A stretch of DNA of 64,000 bases from Lachnospiraceae bacterium (GCA_051879015.1 JBJELF010000040.1:2823-66822); one strand, 5' to 3'; shown: positions 1 through 44,443, counted from the first letter of the stretch. Numbers and translations: made by a program. Notes: a model not told the origin generated them from the letters alone.

Positions 1-275
1 TGCAGCAGATGATTGCAGCACAAAATTTCTAAGGATGGGCATAATACATTGAGAAATTCATTGTTTTGGGCGTCGCGCAGCAGCGCCTGCAGAGCAGGGC
101 GGTCGTGAAGAGAAAAACTGGGATTTACATCGGTGTAGATGGCATCGATGGGCATGGAATGGGCTCGGCAATATTGTACCAGCATACATTGCTGTTGGTA
201 AATTTCTTCCTTGATAGATTCCTGATTGACAGAACAGGAGTTCACTTGTGGACAGCAATACAGAACTGTGTGCAT
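1..275 (-). CDS. Partial CDS whose N-terminus is in the window and which runs off the left edge. It resembles a serine-recombinase/resolvase N-terminal domain but has degenerate catalytic motifs.
   Basis: ATG at 273-275 on the minus strand, preceded by GGAGGC (reverse complement of 281-286). My translation is MHTVLYCCPQVNSCSVNQESIKEEIYQQQCMLVQYCRAHSMPIDAIYTDVNPSFSLHDRPALQALLRDAQNNEFLNVLCPSLEIL. It follows the resolvase-domain layout (YCR.S ... Y.D.G.SG ... RP.L..LL.D ... LSRL.R), but the Ser and Arg positions are substituted. It is absent from the ORF track because it is open at the window edge. Confidence 0.4.
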   Translation of the reverse strand, partial: MHTVLYCCPQVNSCSVNQESIKEEIYQQQCMLVQYCRAHSMPIDAIYTDVNPSFSLHDRPALQALLRDAQNNEFLNVLCPSLEILCCNHLL

Positions 276-392
276 GGGCAGCCTCCTATTGACAAATATC
301 CTGATATTGGGCTCAAAAGGTATTTTGCTCCCATCTTATATATAGATATGTAAAAATGACAAAAGAGTGATTCAAAAAAAATGGAGGTTAAA

Positions 393-1010
393 ATGGAAAT
401 TTATATTATGCGTCATGGACAGACAGATTGGAATGTACTTCGTCGCCTGCAGGGAGGTTCCAATACCAGTTTAAATGAGGAGGGCAGACGTTTGGCGCGA
501 GTGACATCGGAAGCATTAAGAGATATCCCTTTTACAAGGGCTTATACCAGTCCTTTATGGAGGGCGAAAGAGACGGCCCAGATTATTTTGAGAGATCGTA
601 AAATTCCTCTGATTGAGGAGCCAAGATTGCGAGAGATTAGTTTTGGAATTTATGAAGGTTTGACATGCCAGTGGGATCAGAGTGAGATCCCTGACCCGGA
701 ATTTATGAATTTCTTTTATGCACCGGAAAAATATCATGCGCCGCAGGGAGGAGAAAGTTTAGAGAGTCTTTGTGCCCGTACTACGGAATTTTTAAATGAA
801 TTGGTACAAAATGCAGATTTGCAAGATGATACTATTTTACTGTCTTCTCATGGGGCAGCAGTGCGGGCACTGCTTTCCTCTGTCAATAAAGAGGGTTCTG
901 ATATGCATGATTTTTGGCATGGTGTAGTGCATAGAAATTGTGCGGTGACTCATCTGCATGCAGAAAATGGAATCATTCAGTTGCTGGAAGAGGGAAAAGT
1001 ATATTATTGA
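393..1010 (+). CDS. Histidine phosphatase family protein (phosphoglycerate mutase-like)
   Basis: N-terminal RHGQTDWN catalytic motif and a later SSHGAAVRAL His motif. Start re-picked at the ATG at 393, which follows GGAGG (384-388). Confidence 0.85.
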   Translation: MEIYIMRHGQTDWNVLRRLQGGSNTSLNEEGRRLARVTSEALRDIPFTRAYTSPLWRAKETAQIILRDRKIPLIEEPRLREISFGIYEGLTCQWDQSEIPDPEFMNFFYAPEKYHAPQGGESLESLCARTTEFLNELVQNADLQDDTILLSSHGAAVRALLSSVNKEGSDMHDFWHGVVHRNCAVTHLHAENGIIQLLEEGKVYY

Positions 1011-1143
1011 AATGATAATTCCTCTGTTTTGCTTGCCTTTCGAGTAGAAAACATGATATACTGAATTTATTATTAGACTGAAGATAGAGAAAAAGGCAGG
1101 GGTGTCTATCGAGACAGGGTAGGTCTAGTAAGAAAGGAGTTTT

Positions 1144-2886
1144 ATGAGAAAAACAAAAATTATTTGTACTATGGGACCAGCAACAGCGGATGATGCGGTA
1201 CTGCGTCAGCTGATGGTTGAAGGCATGAATGTGGCAAGAATCAACTTTTCTCATGGAGATCATGAGCAGCACAAAAATACTCTGAGTCGTATTTTCCGCT
1301 TGAGAGAAGAATTAAATTTGCCAATTGCTACATTGCTGGACACCAAGGGACCAGAAATCCGTACAGGAAACTTCCAGAAAGGTAAAGTGGAGCTGAAAAA
1401 GGGGCAACAGTTTATTTTGACGATTCGTGATGTGGAAGGTGACGAGAACATGGTCTCCATCACATATAAAAATTTATTAAATGATGTCAGAGAGGGTATG
1501 CGTATTTTGATTGATGATGGTCTGATTGAGATGGTAGTTACCTCTATTACTGACACCGACATTGTATGTAAGGTATTGAATGGTGGTTTTGTCTCTAACC
1601 ACAAGGGAATCAATGTACCAAACTGTAACTTGACTATGCCCTTCATCAGCGACAAGGATTATGACGATATTACCTTTGGTATCAAGGCTGGTTTTGATTT
1701 TATTGCAGCTTCGTTTGTCCGCACAGCCGAGGATATCTTGGAGATTCGCAAGATTTTAAATGAAAATGATGCTCATCATATTAAGATTATTGCTAAGATT
1801 GAGAATGCGCAGGGTGTAGAAAATATTGATGATATTATTCGCGTATCGGATGGTATTATGGTGGCTAGAGGTGACATGGGTGTAGAGATTCCTTTGGAGG
1901 AAGTGCCAGTTATCCAAAAAATGATTATCAGCAAAGTATACAATGCGGAGAAAGTAGTTATCACAGCAACTCAGATGTTGGATTCTATGATGAAAAATCC
2001 GCGTCCAACCAGAGCTGAGGCAACGGACGTAGCCAATGCCATCTATGATGGCACCAGCGCAATTATGCTTTCTGGTGAGACTGCAGCAGGCGCTTATCCA
2101 GTGGAAGCGCTGAGAACAATGGTTCGTATTGCAGAGCGCACGGAGGCTGATATCAACTATGTAGAGCGATTCCAGATGAGAGGAACTATGGTAAATCCAG
2201 ATATTACGAATGCAATCTCCCATGCAACTTGTATGACAGCGGTCGATTTAAATGCAGTTGCCATTGTTACGGTTACCATGTCTGGAAAGACTGCTCGAAT
2301 GATTTCTAAGTATCGTCCTGCTTGTCCAATTGTTGCCTGCAGTACGAAAGATTGGGCATGGAGACAGATGAATCTTTCTTGGGGAGTTATTCCATTAAAA
2401 GTGGATGAAAAGCAGACCACCGATGACTTATTTGACCATGCTGTAGAGCGTGCGATTGAAGCTGGTTTAGTCAGTCCAGGTGAGTTGGTTGTTATCACGG
2501 CTGGAGTACCTCTGGGTATGTCTGGTACTACCAACTTGATTAAAGTACATGTGGCCGGTCATATCCTGGCAAAAGGACATTGCATCAGCAACAGAACAGT
2601 ATGCGGAGCACTCTGCATTTGTCATGATGAGACTGATGTAAAGCGCTATTTTAAGAGAGGAGATATCTTAGTAGTGCCAAAAACTACCAATGGTATGATG
2701 GATCAGCTTCGAGAGGCAGCGGGTATCATTACCGAGGAGGATGGAGAAAATTCTCATGCTGCAATTGTTGGCTATAGTTTGAATATTCCAGTTCTTCTGG
2801 GCGCAAAGAATGCGACACGTATTTTGAAAGCGGGAGCTCTTGTGGAGATTAAGGGAGAACAGGGAACTGTTTGCAGCGCAGTTTAA
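1144..2886 (+). CDS. pyk: Pyruvate kinase with a C-terminal PEP-utilizer mobile domain
   Basis: MRKTKIICTMGPA, NFSHG, TKGPEIRTG and MVARGDMGVEIP motifs. The C-terminal roughly 100 aa contain NSHAAIVGYSLNIPVL (swivelling His domain). RBS AAAGGAG. Confidence 0.95.
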   Translation: MRKTKIICTMGPATADDAVLRQLMVEGMNVARINFSHGDHEQHKNTLSRIFRLREELNLPIATLLDTKGPEIRTGNFQKGKVELKKGQQFILTIRDVEGDENMVSITYKNLLNDVREGMRILIDDGLIEMVVTSITDTDIVCKVLNGGFVSNHKGINVPNCNLTMPFISDKDYDDITFGIKAGFDFIAASFVRTAEDILEIRKILNENDAHHIKIIAKIENAQGVENIDDIIRVSDGIMVARGDMGVEIPLEEVPVIQKMIISKVYNAEKVVITATQMLDSMMKNPRPTRAEATDVANAIYDGTSAIMLSGETAAGAYPVEALRTMVRIAERTEADINYVERFQMRGTMVNPDITNAISHATCMTAVDLNAVAIVTVTMSGKTARMISKYRPACPIVACSTKDWAWRQMNLSWGVIPLKVDEKQTTDDLFDHAVERAIEAGLVSPGELVVITAGVPLGMSGTTNLIKVHVAGHILAKGHCISNRTVCGALCICHDETDVKRYFKRGDILVVPKTTNGMMDQLREAAGIITEEDGENSHAAIVGYSLNIPVLLGAKNATRILKAGALVEIKGEQGTVCSAV

Positions 2887-2900
2887 TCTGTTGTATATAG

Positions 2901-2936
2901 AGCTCCTCCCACTGCCTTTGGGCAGTGGGAGGAGCT
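2901..2936 (+). terminator. Perfect 16-bp GC-rich hairpin between pyk and dnaE with no clear U-tract
   Basis: agctcctcccactgcc-tttg-ggcagtgggaggagct. It is followed by tatgag rather than a T run, so it may be a weak terminator or an RNA-stability element. Confidence 0.45.
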
Positions 2937-2959
2937 TATGAGAAAGGAAGGAGTATACT

Positions 2960-4612
2960 ATGTCATTTACTCACCTGCATGTGCATACCGAATACAGCTT
3001 GCTGGACGGCTCATGTAAAGTGAAGGAATTGGTACAGAGAGCCAAGGATTTGGGAATGGACAGTCTTGCCATCACAGATCATGGTGTTATGTACGGTGTA
3101 ATTGATTTTTATCACGCAGCCAAAGAAATTGGCATTAAGCCGATTATTGGCTGCGAAGTTTATGTAGCTCCAGGTTCTCGCTTTGACCGAGAAAAAAATG
3201 TCAATGGAGATGACCGATATTATCATCTGATTTTATTGGCAGAAAATGACTTGGGATATCACAATCTAATGAAGATTGTTTCTTACGGATTTACAGAAGG
3301 ATATTATTATCGTCCACGTGTCGATAAGGAAATTTTGAGAACCTATCATGAGGGCATTATCTGTTTGAGTGCCTGCCTGGCGGGCGAAGTACAGCGCTAT
3401 TTGGCTAGGGATCAGTATGAGGAGGCAAAGGAGAAAGCCCTTGAATATCAAGAAATTTTTGGAAAAGGAAATTATTTTCTGGAATTGCAGGACCATGGAA
3501 TTCCAATGCAGCGCACTGTCAATACCAGCTTGCTGCGTATGAGCCGAGAACTGCAGATTCCGTTGGTAGCCACCAATGATATTCATTATATCAATGCCAG
3601 TGATGCAGAAGCTCACGATGTTTTGCTCTGTATTCAAACCGGAAAAAAAGTCAGTGACGAAAATCGTATGCGTTACGAGGGCGGACAGTATTATCTTAAG
3701 TCGGAACAAGAGATGAGGGAGCTGTTTCCTTATGCTCAGCAAGCTTTAGATAACACTCACCGTATTGCAGAGCGCTGCAGCGTGGAGATTGAGTTTGGTG
3801 TACAGAAGCTTCCCAAATTTCATGTTCCAGAGGGGTATACGGCTTGGGAGTATCTCAATAAGCTCTGTGAGGAGGGAATGTATCAGCGTTATCCCGATGC
3901 AACGCCGAAATTGTGGGACAAACTTTACTATGAGTTAGACACTATCAAAAATATGGGATATGTGGATTATTTCCTGATTGTGTGGGATTTCATTCGTTTT
4001 GCCCGCAGTAAGGATATCATGGTAGGACCAGGGCGTGGCTCCGCAGCTGGCAGTATTGTTGCTTACACTTTGGGGATCACCAACATTGACCCAATTCGTT
4101 ATGATTTGATTTTTGAGCGATTTTTAAACCCAGAGCGTGTTTCCATGCCTGATATTGATGTGGATTTTTGTTTTGAGCGCCGTCAGGAGGTTATTGATTA
4201 TGTTATTGAAACTTATGGTAAGCGGCAGGTGGCTCAAATTGTGACTTTTGGTACCATGGCTGCTCGCGGTGTCATCCGTGATGTGGGGCGTGTGCTGGAT
4301 TATCCTTACGCGTATTGTGACAGCGTGTCAAAGATGATTCCTGCTGAACTCAATATTACTATTGAGAAAGCATTGAAGATGAATCCTGAGTTAAAGCAGC
4401 TTTACGATACCGATGAGCGTACCAAAAACCTGATTGATATGTCCCTTCGTTTGGAGGGATTGCCAAGGCACACTTCCATGCATGCAGCCGGTGTGGTGAT
4501 TAGTCAAAAGCAGGTCGAGGAGTATGTACCCTTGTCGAGAGGTTCTGACGGTTCGGTAGTTACTCAGTATGTTATGACCACATTAGAGGAGTTAGGTCTT
4601 CTTAAGATGGAT
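2960..4612 (+). CDS. dnaE: DNA polymerase III alpha subunit DnaE, exon 1 (PHP domain and first part of the palm; 551 codons)
   Basis: MSFTHLHVHTEYSLLDG PHP motif and the SMPDIDVDFCFERR palm aspartates. It ends ...EELGLLKMD. The listed ORF then reads 6 codons into the intron (VRIVR, stop at 4628-4630). Confidence 0.9.
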
Positions 4613-5669
4613 GTGCGAATTGTTCGCTAACGAAACACTCCAGAAATGGAAACAAGTTAGCGGAGCAAGGAAATGAAATATTTGAGTACAGTTGGTACAA
4701 AAGTGGCTAGAGCCGCCTGCTGGAAAAAATAAAGTAAGGAACTTGTTTAACTGTTTGTTTGATTAGAATAGTGAAATTCTATTTGTTGGGTAAAGGTCGA
4801 TACCCAATCCCCTAAGACTCCGTTATGCTGTTTGGTCTTAATGCCAAATGGTATAAAGCACGGTGAAGTCGGCTGAAAAGTGCCTAAATGGCTGAAATAT
4901 ATCAGTAGTATTGGTATAAAAGTGGCTAGAGCCCACCTGTATGAAAGTATAAAGTAAAAAGTATGGTGGCGAAGTAAATCGGGGGTCCTTAAGAGAAATC
5001 TTTAAAATATAATATGCCTACACATCAGGAACTACCGTATGAAAGGCTCGTAATTTAAGACCGAAACGAAAGTTTCGTTGTCCCAATTGGGATTTTAGTC
5101 GCAGTAATTTTATTGTCCATTGAGATTACTGTACTTAACCAGTAAGGGTTAAGTGTTCTTATTCCATTCGACTAACGGAAGAAAGAATGTCTAACGGGTT
5201 AAAGGTAGAGGCTAAGTTATAATAATAAAGGATAGAACAAACGGAACAATTGAACCCTAAAAGAAAATGTTAATGCTATTAAGAGCAGATGTTTCTAACA
5301 AGTAGGAAATGACTTGTGAATTTAGGGGGCAGCAGCCCATAGTAGCGATGAAGCGGAGTAATGTCCGTGGAGCGAAGGGGCATAGTCGTAGATTAGAATA
5401 TTGTAAGATAGGTTTAAGACTAAATCCTGCAATGGAGTCTGAAAAGGCATACCTTGAAGGAATAATCATTGAAATCTTAGGAATGGAAATCTACAATAAT
5501 GTAGAATAAGGGTATAATAATCAATTCTGACAATATTCGAAAATAGATTACCGAAGTCTATTCATCTACGCTGGAACGCCGTGTGCGGTGAAAGCCGCAC
5601 GCACGGTGTGAAGTGGGGGAAAACGACCCGTAACAGAAAATGCTGACGGTGTTCGTTACCTATCACTAT
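4613..5669 (+). mobile_element. ORF-less group II intron (dnaE intron 1, 1057 nt)
   Basis: 5' end is GTGCG. Domain V at 5576-5609 is ACGCCGUGU-GCGGU-GAAA-GCCGC-AC-GCACGGUGU (34 nt, GAAA tetraloop, 2-nt AC bulge). The domain VI basal stem pairs AGUGGGGG (5612-5619) with CCU-A-UCACU (5659-5667), with a bulged A at 5662, the 8th nt from the 3' end. The 3' end is UAU. There are stops in all frames and no ORF over 70 aa. Excision joins KMD to FLGLRTL. Confidence 0.8.
5576..5669 (+). ncRNA. Intron 1 catalytic domain V plus extended domain VI
   Basis: Read directly from the sequence as described for intron 1. The lower D5 helix begins A-CGC, so the triad is CGC rather than AGC. D6 spans about 58 nt, compared with the usual roughly 35 nt. 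Confidence 0.7.
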
Positions 5670-6270
5670 TTTTTGGGATTGCGTACACTGACGGTCATTC
5701 AAAATGCTGTGAAAAATGTAAAGAAAAATCGTGGTATTGACATTGATATCGACCATATTAATTTTGATGACAGGAAGGTCTTTGATTCTGTTGGTACAGG
5801 TAGATGTGAAGGTATTTTTCAATTAGAAAGTTCGGGCATGAAAAATTTCATGAAGGAATTAAGACCAGAAAATTTGGAAGATATCATAGCAGGTATTTCC
5901 CTGTATCGTCCAGGACCGATGGAGTTTATTCCAAAGTATTTAAAAGGGAAAAATGCCAAGGATTCGATTCAGTATGACTGTCCTCAGCTTGAGCCAATTT
6001 TGAAACCAACCTACGGGTGTATTATTTATCAAGAGCAGGTCATGCAAATTGTTCGTGATTTGGCGGGCTACACTCTTGGACGAAGCGATTTGGTGCGCCG
6101 TGCCATGTCCAAGAAAAAAACAAAAGTTATGGAACAGGAACGCAAAAACTTTGTATACGGAAACGAGGCAGAGGGAGTCAGAGGCTGTGTTGCCAATGGC
6201 ATTAGCGAGAAGACAGCCAATCAAATTTATGATGAAATGATTGATTTTGCAAAATATGCCTTTAATAAGT
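5670..6270 (+). CDS. dnaE: DNA polymerase III alpha subunit DnaE, exon 2 (601 nt)
   Basis: Begins FLGLRTLTVIQ and contains GIFQLESSGM, ISLYRPGPME, IIYQEQVMQI and LVRRAMSKKK. It ends ...DFAKYAFNK plus the first nt of the Ser codon. The ORF-track residues before F (MLTVFVTYHY) are intron sequence. Confidence 0.9.
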
Positions 6271-7234
6271 GTTCGACCCGTTCTAGCTTTAAATAAACAA
6301 AGAGCTAGCACTCTTTTAGGAGTAAGAAACTAAAAATAGGAGAACTAATAATCTGATTGAGTGGAATGATGGAGTAACGCCCTGAAACACTCTCCCTAAT
6401 ACTCCGACTGGCTACACAAGAGGAAACTCTAGTAGTTAGAAGTTCGGTGAAGTCGGCAGAAGTAAACCTAAACTGATTAAAAATCAAGAGTAACATTGGT
6501 ACAAAAGAGCCTAGAGGATGCCTGTGTGAAAAAAGATATAATAAAGGCATGGTTTATGATATGCCGGGGGTCTACAAAATACCTATGGTGAGAATGTCGT
6601 GGCATCTACACGGCTGACGAACCAGCGAATTTAAGAGTCTATATGAAGCTTATAGGGAAACCCATAAGGACGCAGATGCGTCGTTGGTGTGGATTAGTAA
6701 GAATTTTTGTTATGAAACTCCATACAGTGTTATAGGCACTGTCAAGCCAACAGGATCAGAGCTAGGCACCTAAGGGTATATATGTACAGATAAGATTATT
6801 GGTACGGGGAAAGGTATCAGGCTGAGTTAATCGGTAAGTGGACGAAGAATAATAAGCCACTGAACTGGTGCCGAAAAGTAGAGGTCGCACCTATGAAATT
6901 TCTGTAATGGAAATGGAGGAATGGCCTCAAGTCGGTATAAGAATAATAGGATATTTAAGCACCTATAAAAATGCCAGATGGGTTAATGATAAATCCATAG
7001 AAAGGAACACCACAAGGAGGAATTATTTCGCCAAAACGGAACAATTGCTTACAACCGTGTAACAAACAATTCAAAATAGGTGTTTTGTTAATCTCTATAC
7101 CAACATGGATGAACTAGCATAGTTGTGTTGGTTGAATTCTATATCGATGGAACGCCGGATGCGCTGAAAGGTGCATGTCCGGTGTGGACCGGGGGAAAAA
7201 CTGGAGATCACATCAAAGGTTTACCTATCGGTAT
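6271..7234 (+). mobile_element. ORF-less group II intron (dnaE intron 2, 964 nt), homologous to intron 1
   Basis: 5' end is GTTCG; a register shift of 1-2 nt would encode the same protein. Domain V at 7153-7186 is ACGCCGGAU-GCGCU-GAAA-GGUGC-AU-GUCCGGUGU. The domain VI basal stem pairs ACCGGGGG (7189-7196) with CCU-A-UCGGU (7224-7232), with a bulged A at 7227, the 8th nt from the 3' end. The 3' end is UAU. It shares CGGTGAAGTCGGC, TTGGTACAAAAG.G.CTAGAG, GGGGGTC and TTACCTATC blocks with intron 1. No ORF over 81 aa. Confidence 0.8.
7153..7234 (+). ncRNA. Intron 2 catalytic domain V plus extended domain VI
   Basis: Same architecture as in intron 1, including the flanking CTGGAACGCC / GATGGAACGCC context, the CGC triad and the GGGGGAAAA start of D6. 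Confidence 0.7.
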
Positions 7235-8454
7235 CTCATGCTGCTGCTTATGCAGTGGTTGCCTATGAGACTGCCTGGCTCAAATATTATTATCCGGTAG
7301 AGTATATGGCAGCTTTGATGACTTCTGTGATTGAAAATGTGAGAAAAGTGTCAGATTATATGCAGACTTGCCGTCAGATGGGCATTGAAATTTTGCCCCC
7401 AGACATCAATGAAGGACAGAGTGAGTTTTCCGTTCATGGTGATAAGATTCGATACGGTCTGTCCGCACTGAAAAGCCTGGGAAAATCTGTTATTGATTCT
7501 ATAGTGGAGGAGCGAGAACAAAATGGCAAGTTTTTGACCCTCAAGGATTTTATCAGCCGCATGGAGGGCAAGGATATCAACAAGCGAGTGATTGAGAACC
7601 TGATTAAGGCTGGGGCTCTCGACAGTCTTCCTGGTAATCGTCGTCAGAAGGTGATGACTTACCCCAAAATGATGGAGCAAGTAACAAGAGAGCGCAAGGA
7701 TAATGTGATTGGGCAAATGTCCCTGTTTGATTTTGTGGAGGAAGAAGATAAAAAGGACTTGGAGATTACCTTTCCTGATGTGCCTGAATACGAGAAAAGC
7801 GAGCTGCTTGCTTTTGAGAAGGAAATCATGGGAATTTATGTCAGTGGACATCCTCTTGAGGATGATGTAGAATTATTAAAGAAAAATACCAACGCTGAAA
7901 CAAAGATGCTGTGGGCAGATGAAGAGACTGGAGAGATTCTGTTAAAGGAAGGAATGACATGCCGCATTGGAGGTTTGATTACAGATAAAACTGTGCGCCC
8001 TACCAAGAATAACCAGATGATGGCATTTTTTACATTGGAGGATATGAAAGGGAGCGTGGAAGTGGTGGTCTTTCCCAAAATTTACGAGAGATACCGGGGC
8101 TCCATTGAAATTGAGAAGAAAGTGCTGGTAGAAGGACGTGTTAGCCCGGGAACGGATGAGCAGGCAAAATTAGTTTGTGAAAAAATTATCCCATTTGAGG
8201 AGATCCCAAAACAGGTATGGATTCAGTTTGAGAACTTAGATGATTGGCAGCGACAGTCTGGATTTTTTCAGCAAATGTTGGTTGGAAAAAGAGGAAATGA
8301 TCAGATTGTCATCTATATCAAAAATCCGAGGAGTTACAAGAAATTGCCGTCTTCCTGCAATATTTCTGCTACTAAAGAAAATATCGAAAATTTTGTGCAA
8401 AAATTTGGAAAAAGTAATGTGAAAGTTATAACAACTCCTATTGAAAATAAATAG
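7235..8454 (+). CDS. dnaE: DNA polymerase III alpha subunit DnaE, exon 3 (fingers, HhH and OB-fold tail)
   Basis: Begins (S)HAAAYAVVAYETAWLKYYYPVEYMAALM and continues IRYGLSALKSLG, then an OB-fold region. Stop at 8452-8454. The three exons sum to 3474 nt, or 1157 aa, a normal DnaE size. Confidence 0.9.
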
Positions 8455-8578
8455 AAAATAGGCTAAAATAAGACTGATCGCTTTATAGTGCGTTATATGA
8501 AACATTATAATGGTTCTGTCAGCGAAACATCATATAACAAAACTAGACGGAATAAAAGACAAATGGAGGAAATTGATT

Positions 8579-9556
8579 ATGGCAAACGCAGTTAGTACAA
8601 TTGGTGTTTTGACAAGTGGTGGAGATGCACCTGGAATGAATGCCGCAATTCGTGCTGTAGTGAGAGTTGCTCTTGCAAAAGGACTGAAAGTAAAGGGTAT
8701 TATGAGAGGTTATGCAGGTCTGTTGAATGAAGAAATCATTGATATGGATGCCAACAGTGTATCCGACATCATTCAGCGTGGTGGTACGATTCTTTATACT
8801 GCAAGATGTTCTGAGTTTCGCACGGAGGATGGTCAGAAACGTGGTGCAGAGATTTGCAGAAAATATGGCATTGATGGTTTAGTTGTCATTGGCGGAGATG
8901 GTTCTTTCAATGGTGCAGCAAAGCTTGCAAACTTAGGTATCAATACCATTGGACTTCCAGGTACTATTGACTTGGATATTGCATGTACTGAGTACACAAT
9001 CGGATTTGATACGGCTATCAATACCGCTATGGAGGCAATTGATAAGATTCGTGATACTTCTGCATCCCATGAGCGCTGTTCGATTATCGAGGTAATGGGA
9101 AGAAGTGCTGGTTATATCGCATTGTGGTGTGGTATTTCTACAGGCGCCGAGGCCATTTTACTTCCAGAGCGTTATGACGGAGATGAGCAGGCTATTATCA
9201 ACCGTATTATTGAGAGTCGTAAGAGAGGCAGAAGACATCATATTATTGTCAATGCGGAAGGTGTAGGTCATTCTTCCAGCATGGCAAAGCGTATTGAGGC
9301 AGCTACTGGCATTGAAACTCGTGCGACTATTTTAGGACATATGCAAAGAGGCGGCAGTCCAACTTGTCAGGATAGAATGCATGCTTCTATTATGGGTGCG
9401 AGAGCAGTGGAACTTCTCTGTGAAGGCAAGTCGAACCGTGTTGTTGGCTATCAGAATGGTGAGTATGTAGACTACGACATCATTGAGGCATTGCAGATGA
9501 AGAAGGATATCTCTGACTATCAGTATCAGATCAGTAAGTTATTGATTAGACAGTAA
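8579..9556 (+). CDS. pfkA: ATP-dependent 6-phosphofructokinase
   Basis: IGVLTSGGDAPGMNAAIR, VIGGDGS and GHMQRGG motifs. Start re-picked at the ATG at 8579, after GGAGGA (8565-8570). Confidence 0.93.
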   Translation: MANAVSTIGVLTSGGDAPGMNAAIRAVVRVALAKGLKVKGIMRGYAGLLNEEIIDMDANSVSDIIQRGGTILYTARCSEFRTEDGQKRGAEICRKYGIDGLVVIGGDGSFNGAAKLANLGINTIGLPGTIDLDIACTEYTIGFDTAINTAMEAIDKIRDTSASHERCSIIEVMGRSAGYIALWCGISTGAEAILLPERYDGDEQAIINRIIESRKRGRRHHIIVNAEGVGHSSSMAKRIEAATGIETRATILGHMQRGGSPTCQDRMHASIMGARAVELLCEGKSNRVVGYQNGEYVDYDIIEALQMKKDISDYQYQISKLLIRQ

Positions 9557-44260: not shown

Positions 44261-44443
44261 TATGATACCAGGTTCAAAAGGTCATATAATTTCATGCAAG
44301 CATGAAATTGTATGACTTTGGGACCCGCTAAAACATGAGAAAGTAGCCAAAATAGGGCGATTTCTCATGTTTTCGGATTGCGTGAGCACGAAGTGCGAAG
44401 CAATCCATAAGTATCAAAGGGGCAAAATACTTTTTGAGCCTTT
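44261..44443 (+). repeat. Longest (composite) copy of the structured repeat, with four consecutive hairpins combining the family A and family B modules
   Basis: H1 pairs 44281-44297 with 44300-44316 (gtcatataatttcatgc / gcatgaaattgtatgac). H2 pairs 44330-44341 with 44362-44373 (aaaacatgagaa / ttctcatgtttt). H3 pairs 44375-44381 with 44400-44406 (ggattgc / gcaatcc). H4 spans 44416-44443 (aaaggggcaaaa-tac-tttttgagccttt). Confidence 0.75.

Follow-up and report, generated by a model that had tools for sequence, protein, structure and literature searches.

The gene dnaE, which encodes DNA polymerase III's alpha subunit, is interrupted twice by group II introns in a 64,000-nucleotide stretch of DNA from a Lachnospiraceae bacterium (GCA_051879015.1 JBJELF010000040.1:2823-66822), referred to here as the window and numbered from its first letter. 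Both introns lack an open reading frame (ORF). Judged from the sequence, this is very likely a dnaE with two functional, splicing-only introns, derived from mobile introns by deletion of the ORF and probably helped in trans. Comparison with Rfam and protein models and with related loci establishes the identity of the introns, their descent through ORF deletion, the intactness of the exons and the conservation of the ribozyme structure. The arrangement of the gene is as follows:

2960-4612, + strand: dnaE exon 1, codons 1-551, with the PHP domain and the palm (PDIDVDF); its last codon, D551, aligns with E. coli D555
4613-5669, + strand: intron 1, ORF-less group II, 1057 nt, phase 0, after the D551 codon, with Rfam matches
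5670-6270, + strand: dnaE exon 2, codons 552-751 with base 1 of codon 752; fingers domain
6271-7234, + strand: intron 2, ORF-less group II, 964 nt, phase 1 (AAG U/CU CAU), with Rfam matches
7235-8454, + strand: dnaE exon 3, the remainder of codon 752 through the stop, with the helix-hairpin-helix (HhH) and OB fold

The interrupted gene and its spliced product

The ORFs at 2960-4630, 5640-6296 and 7171-8454 lie in frames 2, 0 and 1, respectively, and the original prediction that they are pieces of a single DnaE is borne out by a full-length match of the joined product to the NCBIfam model NF005298 (DNA polymerase III subunit alpha, equivalog): spliced residues 1-1149 correspond to profile positions 3-1150 of 1151, with 1859.8 bits against a cutoff of 1260. 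Taking out 4613-5669 (1057 nt) and 6271-7234 (964 nt) leaves a 3474-nt frame of 1157 codons with a single terminal stop, and rebuilds the joints ...LGLLKMD/FLGLRTL... and ...YAFNK/SHAAAY.... The catalytic aspartate triad is in place, as PDIDVDF and KMD align with D401, D403 and D555 of E. coli, the last of which is the third catalytic aspartate.

PolC models score far under their own cutoffs on the spliced product, which is therefore of the DnaE type and not of the PolC type. The main replicase of Firmicutes is PolC, with DnaE as a second polymerase that is essential in B. subtilis; the earlier description of the gene as that of the replicative polymerase was thus right about Pol III alpha and overstated its role.

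The gene sits between pyk and pfkA (pyk-dnaE-pfkA), and the dnaE-pfkA order is common to related loci: the window copy is the syntenic chromosomal dnaE of a Lachnospiraceae-like Clostridium. Orthologues were taken from the 80 species-representative genomes most similar in the exon 2 region of DnaE (63-81% identity, the best exon 2 identity being 81%, which places the genome of the window outside this set), almost all of them Lachnospiraceae and other Clostridia. In none of the 80 is dnaE interrupted at either site, and each copy is colinear with the spliced product; the junctions consequently restore the ancestral protein with no residue gained or lost, as had been proposed, and the introns represent a derived, sporadic state. 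An exact look-up of the exon 2 ORF in sequence collections gave zero matches, and the species is barely represented there.

Ribozyme structure and exon recognition

Searches with Rfam covariance models, run at the gathering thresholds, recognise domains 1 to 4 (D1-D4) and domains 5 and 6 (D5-D6) in both spacers: RF02004 (group-II-D1D4-5) at 4746-4993 with 53 bits and at 6340-6578 with 136 bits, and RF00029 (D5-D6; gathering score 40) at 5574-5669 (56.0 bits) and 7150-7234 (55.7 bits). These four are the only Rfam intron matches in the window, and both D5-D6 matches stop at the final base of the proposed introns. The Rfam alignments, together with the sequences of the intron ends, agree with the group II hallmarks first read from the sequence, namely the 5' ends GUGCG (intron 1) and GUUCG (intron 2), a 34-nt domain V, a bulged adenosine 8 nt from the 3' end and a 3' terminal UAU in each intron. 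GUUCG is a one-base variant of GUGYG and is the same in the copies of intron 2 on the related contigs L087, L086 and L148. Each junction is movable by 1 nt (a shared T) with the mRNA unaltered, and the GU...AY convention sets the position chosen. Intron 1 and intron 2 occupy what we call sites 1 and 2a of dnaE, and their parts, including exon-binding site 1 (EBS1) and its partner, intron-binding site 1 (IBS1), map as follows:

4618-5251, + strand: intron 1 domain 1, closing helix 4618-4624/5245-5251, from the RNAalifold consensus of 8 site-1 introns
4694-4713 and 4913-4932, + strand: starts of the D1 insertion module (GGUAYAAAAGNGSCYAGAGS...) in intron 1
5115-5121, + strand: intron 1 EBS1 GUCCAUU, in the loop of hairpin 5101-5132; partner IBS1 GAUGGAU at 4606-4612
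5252-5330, + strand: intron 1 domain 2, RNAalifold consensus mapped to the window
5335-5381, + strand: intron 1 domain 3, RNAalifold consensus mapped to the window
5382-5573, + strand: intron 1 domain 4 remnant, basal helix kept
5576-5609, + strand: intron 1 domain 5, 34 nt, CGC triad, GAAA loop
5613-5666, + strand: intron 1 domain 6, bulged branch-point A5662, with no partner in the RF00029 alignment, 8 nt from the 3' end
6277-6808, + strand: intron 2 domain 1, from the consensus of the 21-sequence family mapped to the window
6498-6517, + strand: start of the D1 insertion module in intron 2
6705-6711, + strand: intron 2 EBS1 UUUUGUU, in the loop AGUAAGAAU-EBS1-AUGAAA
6931-7148, + strand: intron 2 domain 4 remnant, closing helix present
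6957-7034, + strand: reverse transcriptase (RT) ORF relic in the intron 2 domain 4 remnant, homologous to the intron-encoded protein (IEP) gene of L087
7152-7185, + strand: intron 2 domain 5, 34 nt, CGC triad, GAAA loop
7189-7231, + strand: intron 2 domain 6, bulged branch-point A7227, with no partner in the RF00029 alignment, 8 nt from the 3' end

For intron 1, the consensus structure of the eight site-1 introns comprises 206 pairs, 62 of them with compensatory changes, compared with 3-8 when the partners are slid; none of 500 shuffles reaches the observed value. The window copy keeps 202 of the 206 pairs (98%), equal to L154, which carries the closest ORF-containing relative of intron 1 (90% identity). 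Ten pairs are altered on both sides between the window and L154, and nine of these are still paired, the exception lying at the edge of the D4 deletion. In the family of intron 2 (21 sequences, phage-borne relatives included), 82 of the 105 consensus pairs covary; the window copy retains 100 of the 105 (95%), inside the 92-99% range of the ORF-containing copies, and its RF02004 score of 136 bits compares with 130 bits for the ORF-containing copy of L087.

Recognition of the 5' exon can be traced in both introns. EBS1 and IBS1 of intron 1 form 7 pairs, including 2 G.U, and the hairpin stem of EBS1 shows compensatory changes. The position of EBS1 in intron 2 was fixed comparatively, as 13 of 18 members carry, in the loop AGUAAGAAU-N7-AUGAAA, 6-7 nt complementary to their own 5' exon; in the window, this EBS1 together with A6712 pairs with exon positions -8 to -2 (6263-6269) through 7 pairs, two of them G.U.

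Several candidates for EBS2 were considered. A 10-bp complement in intron 2 (UAAAGGCAUG/UAUGCCUUUA) was rejected: UAAAGGCAUG belongs to the lineage-specific D1 module, has been kept in both L087 and L086 despite their differing exons, and probably pairs within the module. The other candidate in intron 2 is UAUAU, and the one in intron 1, CUUAAGAG (4988-4995), falls in a ~12-nt insertion missing from most relatives. The EBS2 candidates are lineage-specific insertions or sequences without covariation.

The D4 remnants of both introns fold shut as stems. Nucleotide identity of the introns to their relatives amounts to 77-90% in D1-D3 and 78-90% in D5-D6, and is lower, at 65-73%, in the conserved flanking exons. 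On these comparisons, both ribozymes look intact, and the retention of pairs, the EBS1 match, the D4 stems and the high intron identity argue for continued selection on splicing, although they fall short of proof.

The features of class IIC are lacking: D1-D3 measure ~680-800 nt, the insertions lie within ORF codons and the IEPs of the relatives end in an HNH/CxxC motif. Searches of PDB and Pfam with the IEPs found them about equally similar to IIA, IIB and IIC maturases, which leaves the introns unassignable to IIA, IIB or a bacterial class. One further Rfam match in the window, a Clostridiales-1 RNA (RF01699, 96.6 bits) at 44263-44416 on the + strand, is unrelated to the dnaE introns.

Mobile relatives and dnaE as an insertion target

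On related contigs, the same dnaE sites hold ~3-kb introns encoding RT-maturase-HNH proteins. The site-matched homologues have IEPs of 632-642 aa with an RVT_1 domain, and GIIM or HNH scores near or just below the Pfam cutoff, in one protein each. ORF-containing homologues of intron 1 occupy site 1 in L003, L143, L144, L149, L151, L154 and L155, and those of intron 2 occupy site 2a in L087 and L148. Positions 1-805 and 913-1052 of intron 1 match the sequence on either side of the IEP gene in the L003 intron (78% and 89%, respectively), ~2.2 kb being replaced by ~107 nt that do not align with the ORF-containing relatives; from its D4, the IEP ORF has been deleted along with its Shine-Dalgarno sequence and start region. 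A metagenome scan for the junction of intron 1 and exon 2 returned 17 further contigs, mostly from human gut, and all seven complete site-1 introns among them (2969-3170 nt) carry the IEP intact, which leaves the window copy as the sole ORF-less site-1 intron seen.

In intron 2, positions 1-681 and 798-936 align with the two sides of the IEP gene (642 aa) in the L087 intron, and between them a 78-nt relic remains (positions 687-764, window 6957-7034) with 74% nucleotide identity to that gene. The spacers had been described as free of any credible ORF, and tblastn with three IEPs detects in them this relic alone, as 25 aa at 6959-7033 with 76% amino acid identity to IEP residues 221-245. Another contig, L086, carries the same intron as intron 2 with a different deletion that leaves the first ~133 codons of the IEP, from which it follows that the ORF was lost at site 2a at least twice independently. 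The L086 ribozyme is 83% identical to that of the window; the contig is of low coverage and has an apparent frameshift at the end of exon 2. The alignments thus mark both window introns as deletion derivatives of ~3-kb mobile introns, and place intron 1 and intron 2 in two different lineages.

By the same comparisons, dnaE in gut Clostridia is a hotspot, with an IStron-like element and at least 4 group II sites, all of them at conserved motifs. The conservation is high at the group II sites, of which site 1 comes after the D551 codon and 2a and 2b lie in FNKSH. Site 2b, 6 nt downstream of site 2a (TCA CAU G/), holds a different intron in L003 (L003:8629-11367), and site 3, within the YQEQ motif (YQ-E-Q) after residue 672, is occupied in L141 and L143. 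Many contigs hold two dnaE introns, in varying combinations. In another gut Clostridium, a 1916-nt element (L087:6079-7994) interrupts dnaE just past codon ~493. A group I intron (RF00028, 73.8 bits, 6092-6480) comes first in it and an IS605 OrfB/TnpB gene (6753-7874) second; this composition makes the element IStron-like, and the same dnaE also houses a group II intron of full length.

Site-1 introns are 97-99% identical across hosts whose exons are 61-74% identical (L143, L144, L149 and L151; L003 and L155), which indicates recent horizontal spread by homing, between genera. The D5 signature of the intron family also occurs in 50 IMG/VR contigs (L089-L138), where the copies lie in mobile DNA. 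Sampled viral copies lie within ORFs, and all eight sampled are in codon phase 1, like intron 2 of the window; the translations upstream of them, judged by eye, resemble portal, major capsid, HK97 gp10-like and RusA-like proteins and look phage-like or of the type of integrative and conjugative elements. The viral copies of L101 and L134 look ORF-less. Acquisition from a phage dnaE was tested and rejected, as none of the 50 D5-bearing viral contigs encodes a DnaE.

The D1 insertion module links the dnaE-resident introns to each other. Its pattern matches the window 3 times against 0.01 expected, and among the fetched loci it occurs solely in dnaE-resident introns, at sites 1, 2a and 3, with zero occurrences among the 50 phage-borne relatives. 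Since ORF-containing copies carry it as well, the module is not an adaptation to ORF loss. Taken as a group, the window introns are not isolated oddities but decayed copies of mobile introns homing to these dnaE sites in many gut Clostridia. More speculatively, these elements might form an undescribed, dnaE-specialised guild of self-splicing elements that spreads horizontally, of which the window lineage would have fixed two unrelated members, now immobile and without a cognate maturase.

Traces of the same arrangement are found in protein collections. A protein search with the exon 2 ORF returned several clusters of ~216-246-aa 'DnaE fragments' (P0002, P0003, P0008, P0013, P0015, P0017 and P0026), whose N-terminus MLTVFVTYHYF is intron 1 domain 6 translated and whose ends NKCSTRS or NKSHG..SS.I are intron 5' ends translated. 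In the assembly collection, P0017 is indexed in 39 blocks (21 contigs read), so that mis-annotation of split dnaE looks like a common feature of gut metagenome data. Gene finders call a split dnaE as three fragments, with consequences for annotation, completeness estimates and marker-gene phylogenies of gut metagenome-assembled genomes. One candidate of a different kind, L005:6235-10425, was set aside, as its four overlapping ORFs reflect a frameshift-ridden assembly and not an intron case.

Splicing, helpers and comparison with known systems

In our reading, the ancestor of each intron was a mobile ~3-kb element with an RT-maturase-HNH gene, which retrohomed into a highly conserved dnaE motif, directly 3' of the catalytic Asp codon at site 1 (KMD/FLG) and within FNK/SH at site 2a. 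Each intron then lost its protein gene by an internal D4 deletion, leaving a splicing-only ribozyme. Production of DnaE would require a 5.5-kb pre-mRNA to be spliced twice: EBS1 (5115-5121; 6705-6711) would base-pair with the end of the upstream exon, the 5' splice site would come under attack from the 2'-OH of the bulged domain 6 adenosine (A5662 or A7227), and the released exon would attack the 3' splice site, freeing the lariat and restoring codons D551-F552 and K751-S752.

The helper is the least certain step of this scheme. We lean, if only slightly, towards maturases supplied in trans by related full-length introns elsewhere in the genome or in its prophages, after the manner of Trichodesmium, because ORF-less bacterial introns nearly always coexist with ORF-containing relatives (PMC4424553). 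The abundance of the family in gut and prophage-like contigs makes such donors plausible, the window being 64 kb of the genome.

A number of points weigh against two functional introns assisted in this way. The splicing of both introns in vivo is itself something that we infer from sequence. The EBS1 pairing of intron 2 consists of A-U and G.U pairs alone, and exon position -1 (U6270) is unpaired, yet it is paired in the ORF-containing L087; the search for exon complements combined with covariation gave no confident EBS2 for either intron. Apart from the 25-aa relic at 6959-7033, tblastn with three IEPs found no RT or maturase gene in the 64-kb window. The region around the IEP start codon and its Shine-Dalgarno sequence is the primary high-affinity maturase binding site in studied introns, e.g. 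Ll.LtrB. In both window introns, the alignments to ORF-containing copies end 68-78 nt upstream of the IEP start codons, and the Shine-Dalgarno and ATG region of D4 is gone; loss of this anchor weakens the case for a maturase in trans. Moreover, the IEPs of the two lineages are ~33-40% identical, so that two separate helpers might be needed. Finally, a second copy of dnaE may exist elsewhere in the genome.

The same losses feed the strongest alternative, in which both introns splice with no maturase of the intron family, either by self-splicing in vivo or with a recruited host factor, on the pattern of C.te.I1 of Clostridium tetani or of organellar splicing-only introns. Two unrelated lineages within one gene have lost the ORF together with the IEP start region, the window contains no maturase, and the D1 module specific to dnaE-resident introns could bind a factor or stabilise the fold. 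A precedent exists in C.te.I1, an ORF-less intron from a genome without an IEP that self-splices robustly in vitro (PMC4424553). The module, however, is also present in ORF-containing copies; the near-constant company of ORF-containing relatives and the wealth of potential donors in gut and prophage-like contigs, with 64 kb of the genome in view, likewise tell against it, and we regard maturase-free splicing as possible but rather doubtful. If true, a maturase-free domesticated pair would represent an organelle-like step of intron domestication in a replication gene of a free-living bacterium.

It is very unlikely that this dnaE is a pseudogene whose introns are decaying and no longer splice while another polymerase gene covers its function. 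The ORF losses, the lack of a maturase and the weak EBS1 of intron 2 are compatible with decay, and the genome seen amounts to 64 kb. Against decay, all 3474 exon nucleotides are in frame and stop-free with every conserved motif intact, the dnaE-pfkA context is conserved as in the relatives, 95-98% of the covarying pairs are kept, and compensatory substitutions have accumulated since the split from the closest ORF-containing relative. The L086 copy, which lost its site-2a ORF independently and whose ribozyme is still as close to that of the window as noted above, points the same way.

The dnaE region was also reproduced, with 1 mismatch in each of two parts, in Logan assemblies of separate runs: window 1-5606 covers exon 1 and intron 1 past the deletion junction into D5, and window 6230-8638 covers the whole of intron 2 with both junctions. 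That the insertions are assembly artefacts or chimeras, such as mobile-element reads mis-joined into dnaE, is barely credible, for although Logan contigs break in or near the introns (5606, 6230, 6905 and 7086), as repeats typically cause, independent per-run assemblies carry both introns and agree at 99.96-100% identity, homologous introns stand at exactly these sites in more than 20 contigs of other organisms, and the EBS1 loops match the flanking exons.

Two splicing-only introns in dnaE, assisted in trans, thus remain the preferred reading, and they would matter for several reasons. For the most part, group II introns in bacteria are retroelements that stay out of essential genes, and here a probably essential polymerase would need two splicing events, by introns no longer able to help themselves. 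The locus would offer a natural bacterial system for the shift from selfish mobility to obligate, splicing-only residence, and for asking whether maturases are shared in trans between intron lineages and whether splicing throttles or regulates replication.

According to the review by Zimmerly and Semper (PMC4424553), group II introns of bacteria are located mostly outside housekeeping genes and seldom lack an ORF. The rarity ascribed to the arrangement at the outset agrees with that review, but the arrangement has a precedent. The closest is dnaN of Trichodesmium erythraeum, with four ORF-less group II introns that are spliced with the RIR intron maturase (Meng et al. 2005, as given in PMC12584367) and whose splicing was verified through split reads (PMC4143802); Geobacillus recA and Avi.groEL are further housekeeping-gene cases cited in the same paper (PMC12584367). 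Like the window dnaE, Trichodesmium dnaN is an essential replication gene of a free-living bacterium that holds several ORF-less group II introns with ORF-containing relatives, which makes expression of the gene dependent on RNA splicing. The two differ in host and gene (a cyanobacterium and the beta clamp, as opposed to Clostridia and DnaE), and in that the dnaN introns are closely related to one another and to their maturase donor, whereas the window introns belong to different lineages, have no donor within 64 kb and have lost the IEP start-codon region.

C.te.I1 of Clostridium tetani is given as the lone exception to the pattern in which ORF-less bacterial introns coexist with ORF-containing relatives, whose IEP may act in trans (PMC4424553). 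Like the window introns, it is a group II intron that has no ORF, interrupts a protein-coding gene of a Clostridium and is not accompanied by a maturase in cis. It resides in a surface-layer protein gene region, undergoes alternative splicing and comes from a genome without an IEP, whereas the window introns lie in a core replication gene, with 64 kb of the genome seen. With the mobile RT-X-HNH introns (L003, L087, L154 and L148; the kind is reviewed in PMC4424553), the window copies share ribozyme families, dnaE sites and the EBS1-IBS1 logic; unlike them, they have no IEP gene and so can neither move nor supply their own maturase.

Our literature search brought up nothing on group II introns in dnaE or in Lachnospiraceae polymerase genes, nor on this family in Lachnospiraceae; the dnaE papers that it returned all concern inteins. 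The cyanobacterial split DnaE intein is a self-splicing selfish element in the same YxFNKSH motif, although it acts by protein splicing and is an unrelated element. In the spliced DnaE, the NCBIfam models of the two cyanobacterial split-DnaE halves part at residues 745-751 (~6250-6270), no more than a few codons from sites 2a and 2b, so that the classic split-intein site and these two insertion sites share one motif.

Organellar splicing-only group II introns of housekeeping genes (PMC4424553) parallel the window introns in the loss of the IEP, the retention of ribozyme and splicing because the host gene is indispensable and the persistence of IEP remnants. Organellar introns use many nuclear-encoded factors and often have degenerate ribozymes, whereas those of the window look intact and reside in a bacterial host. 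What is unusual about the window dnaE, set beside all these systems, is that two unrelated lineages have lost both the ORF and the D4 start-codon region, that the introns carry a dnaE-specific D1 module, and that the gene is a multi-site hotspot.

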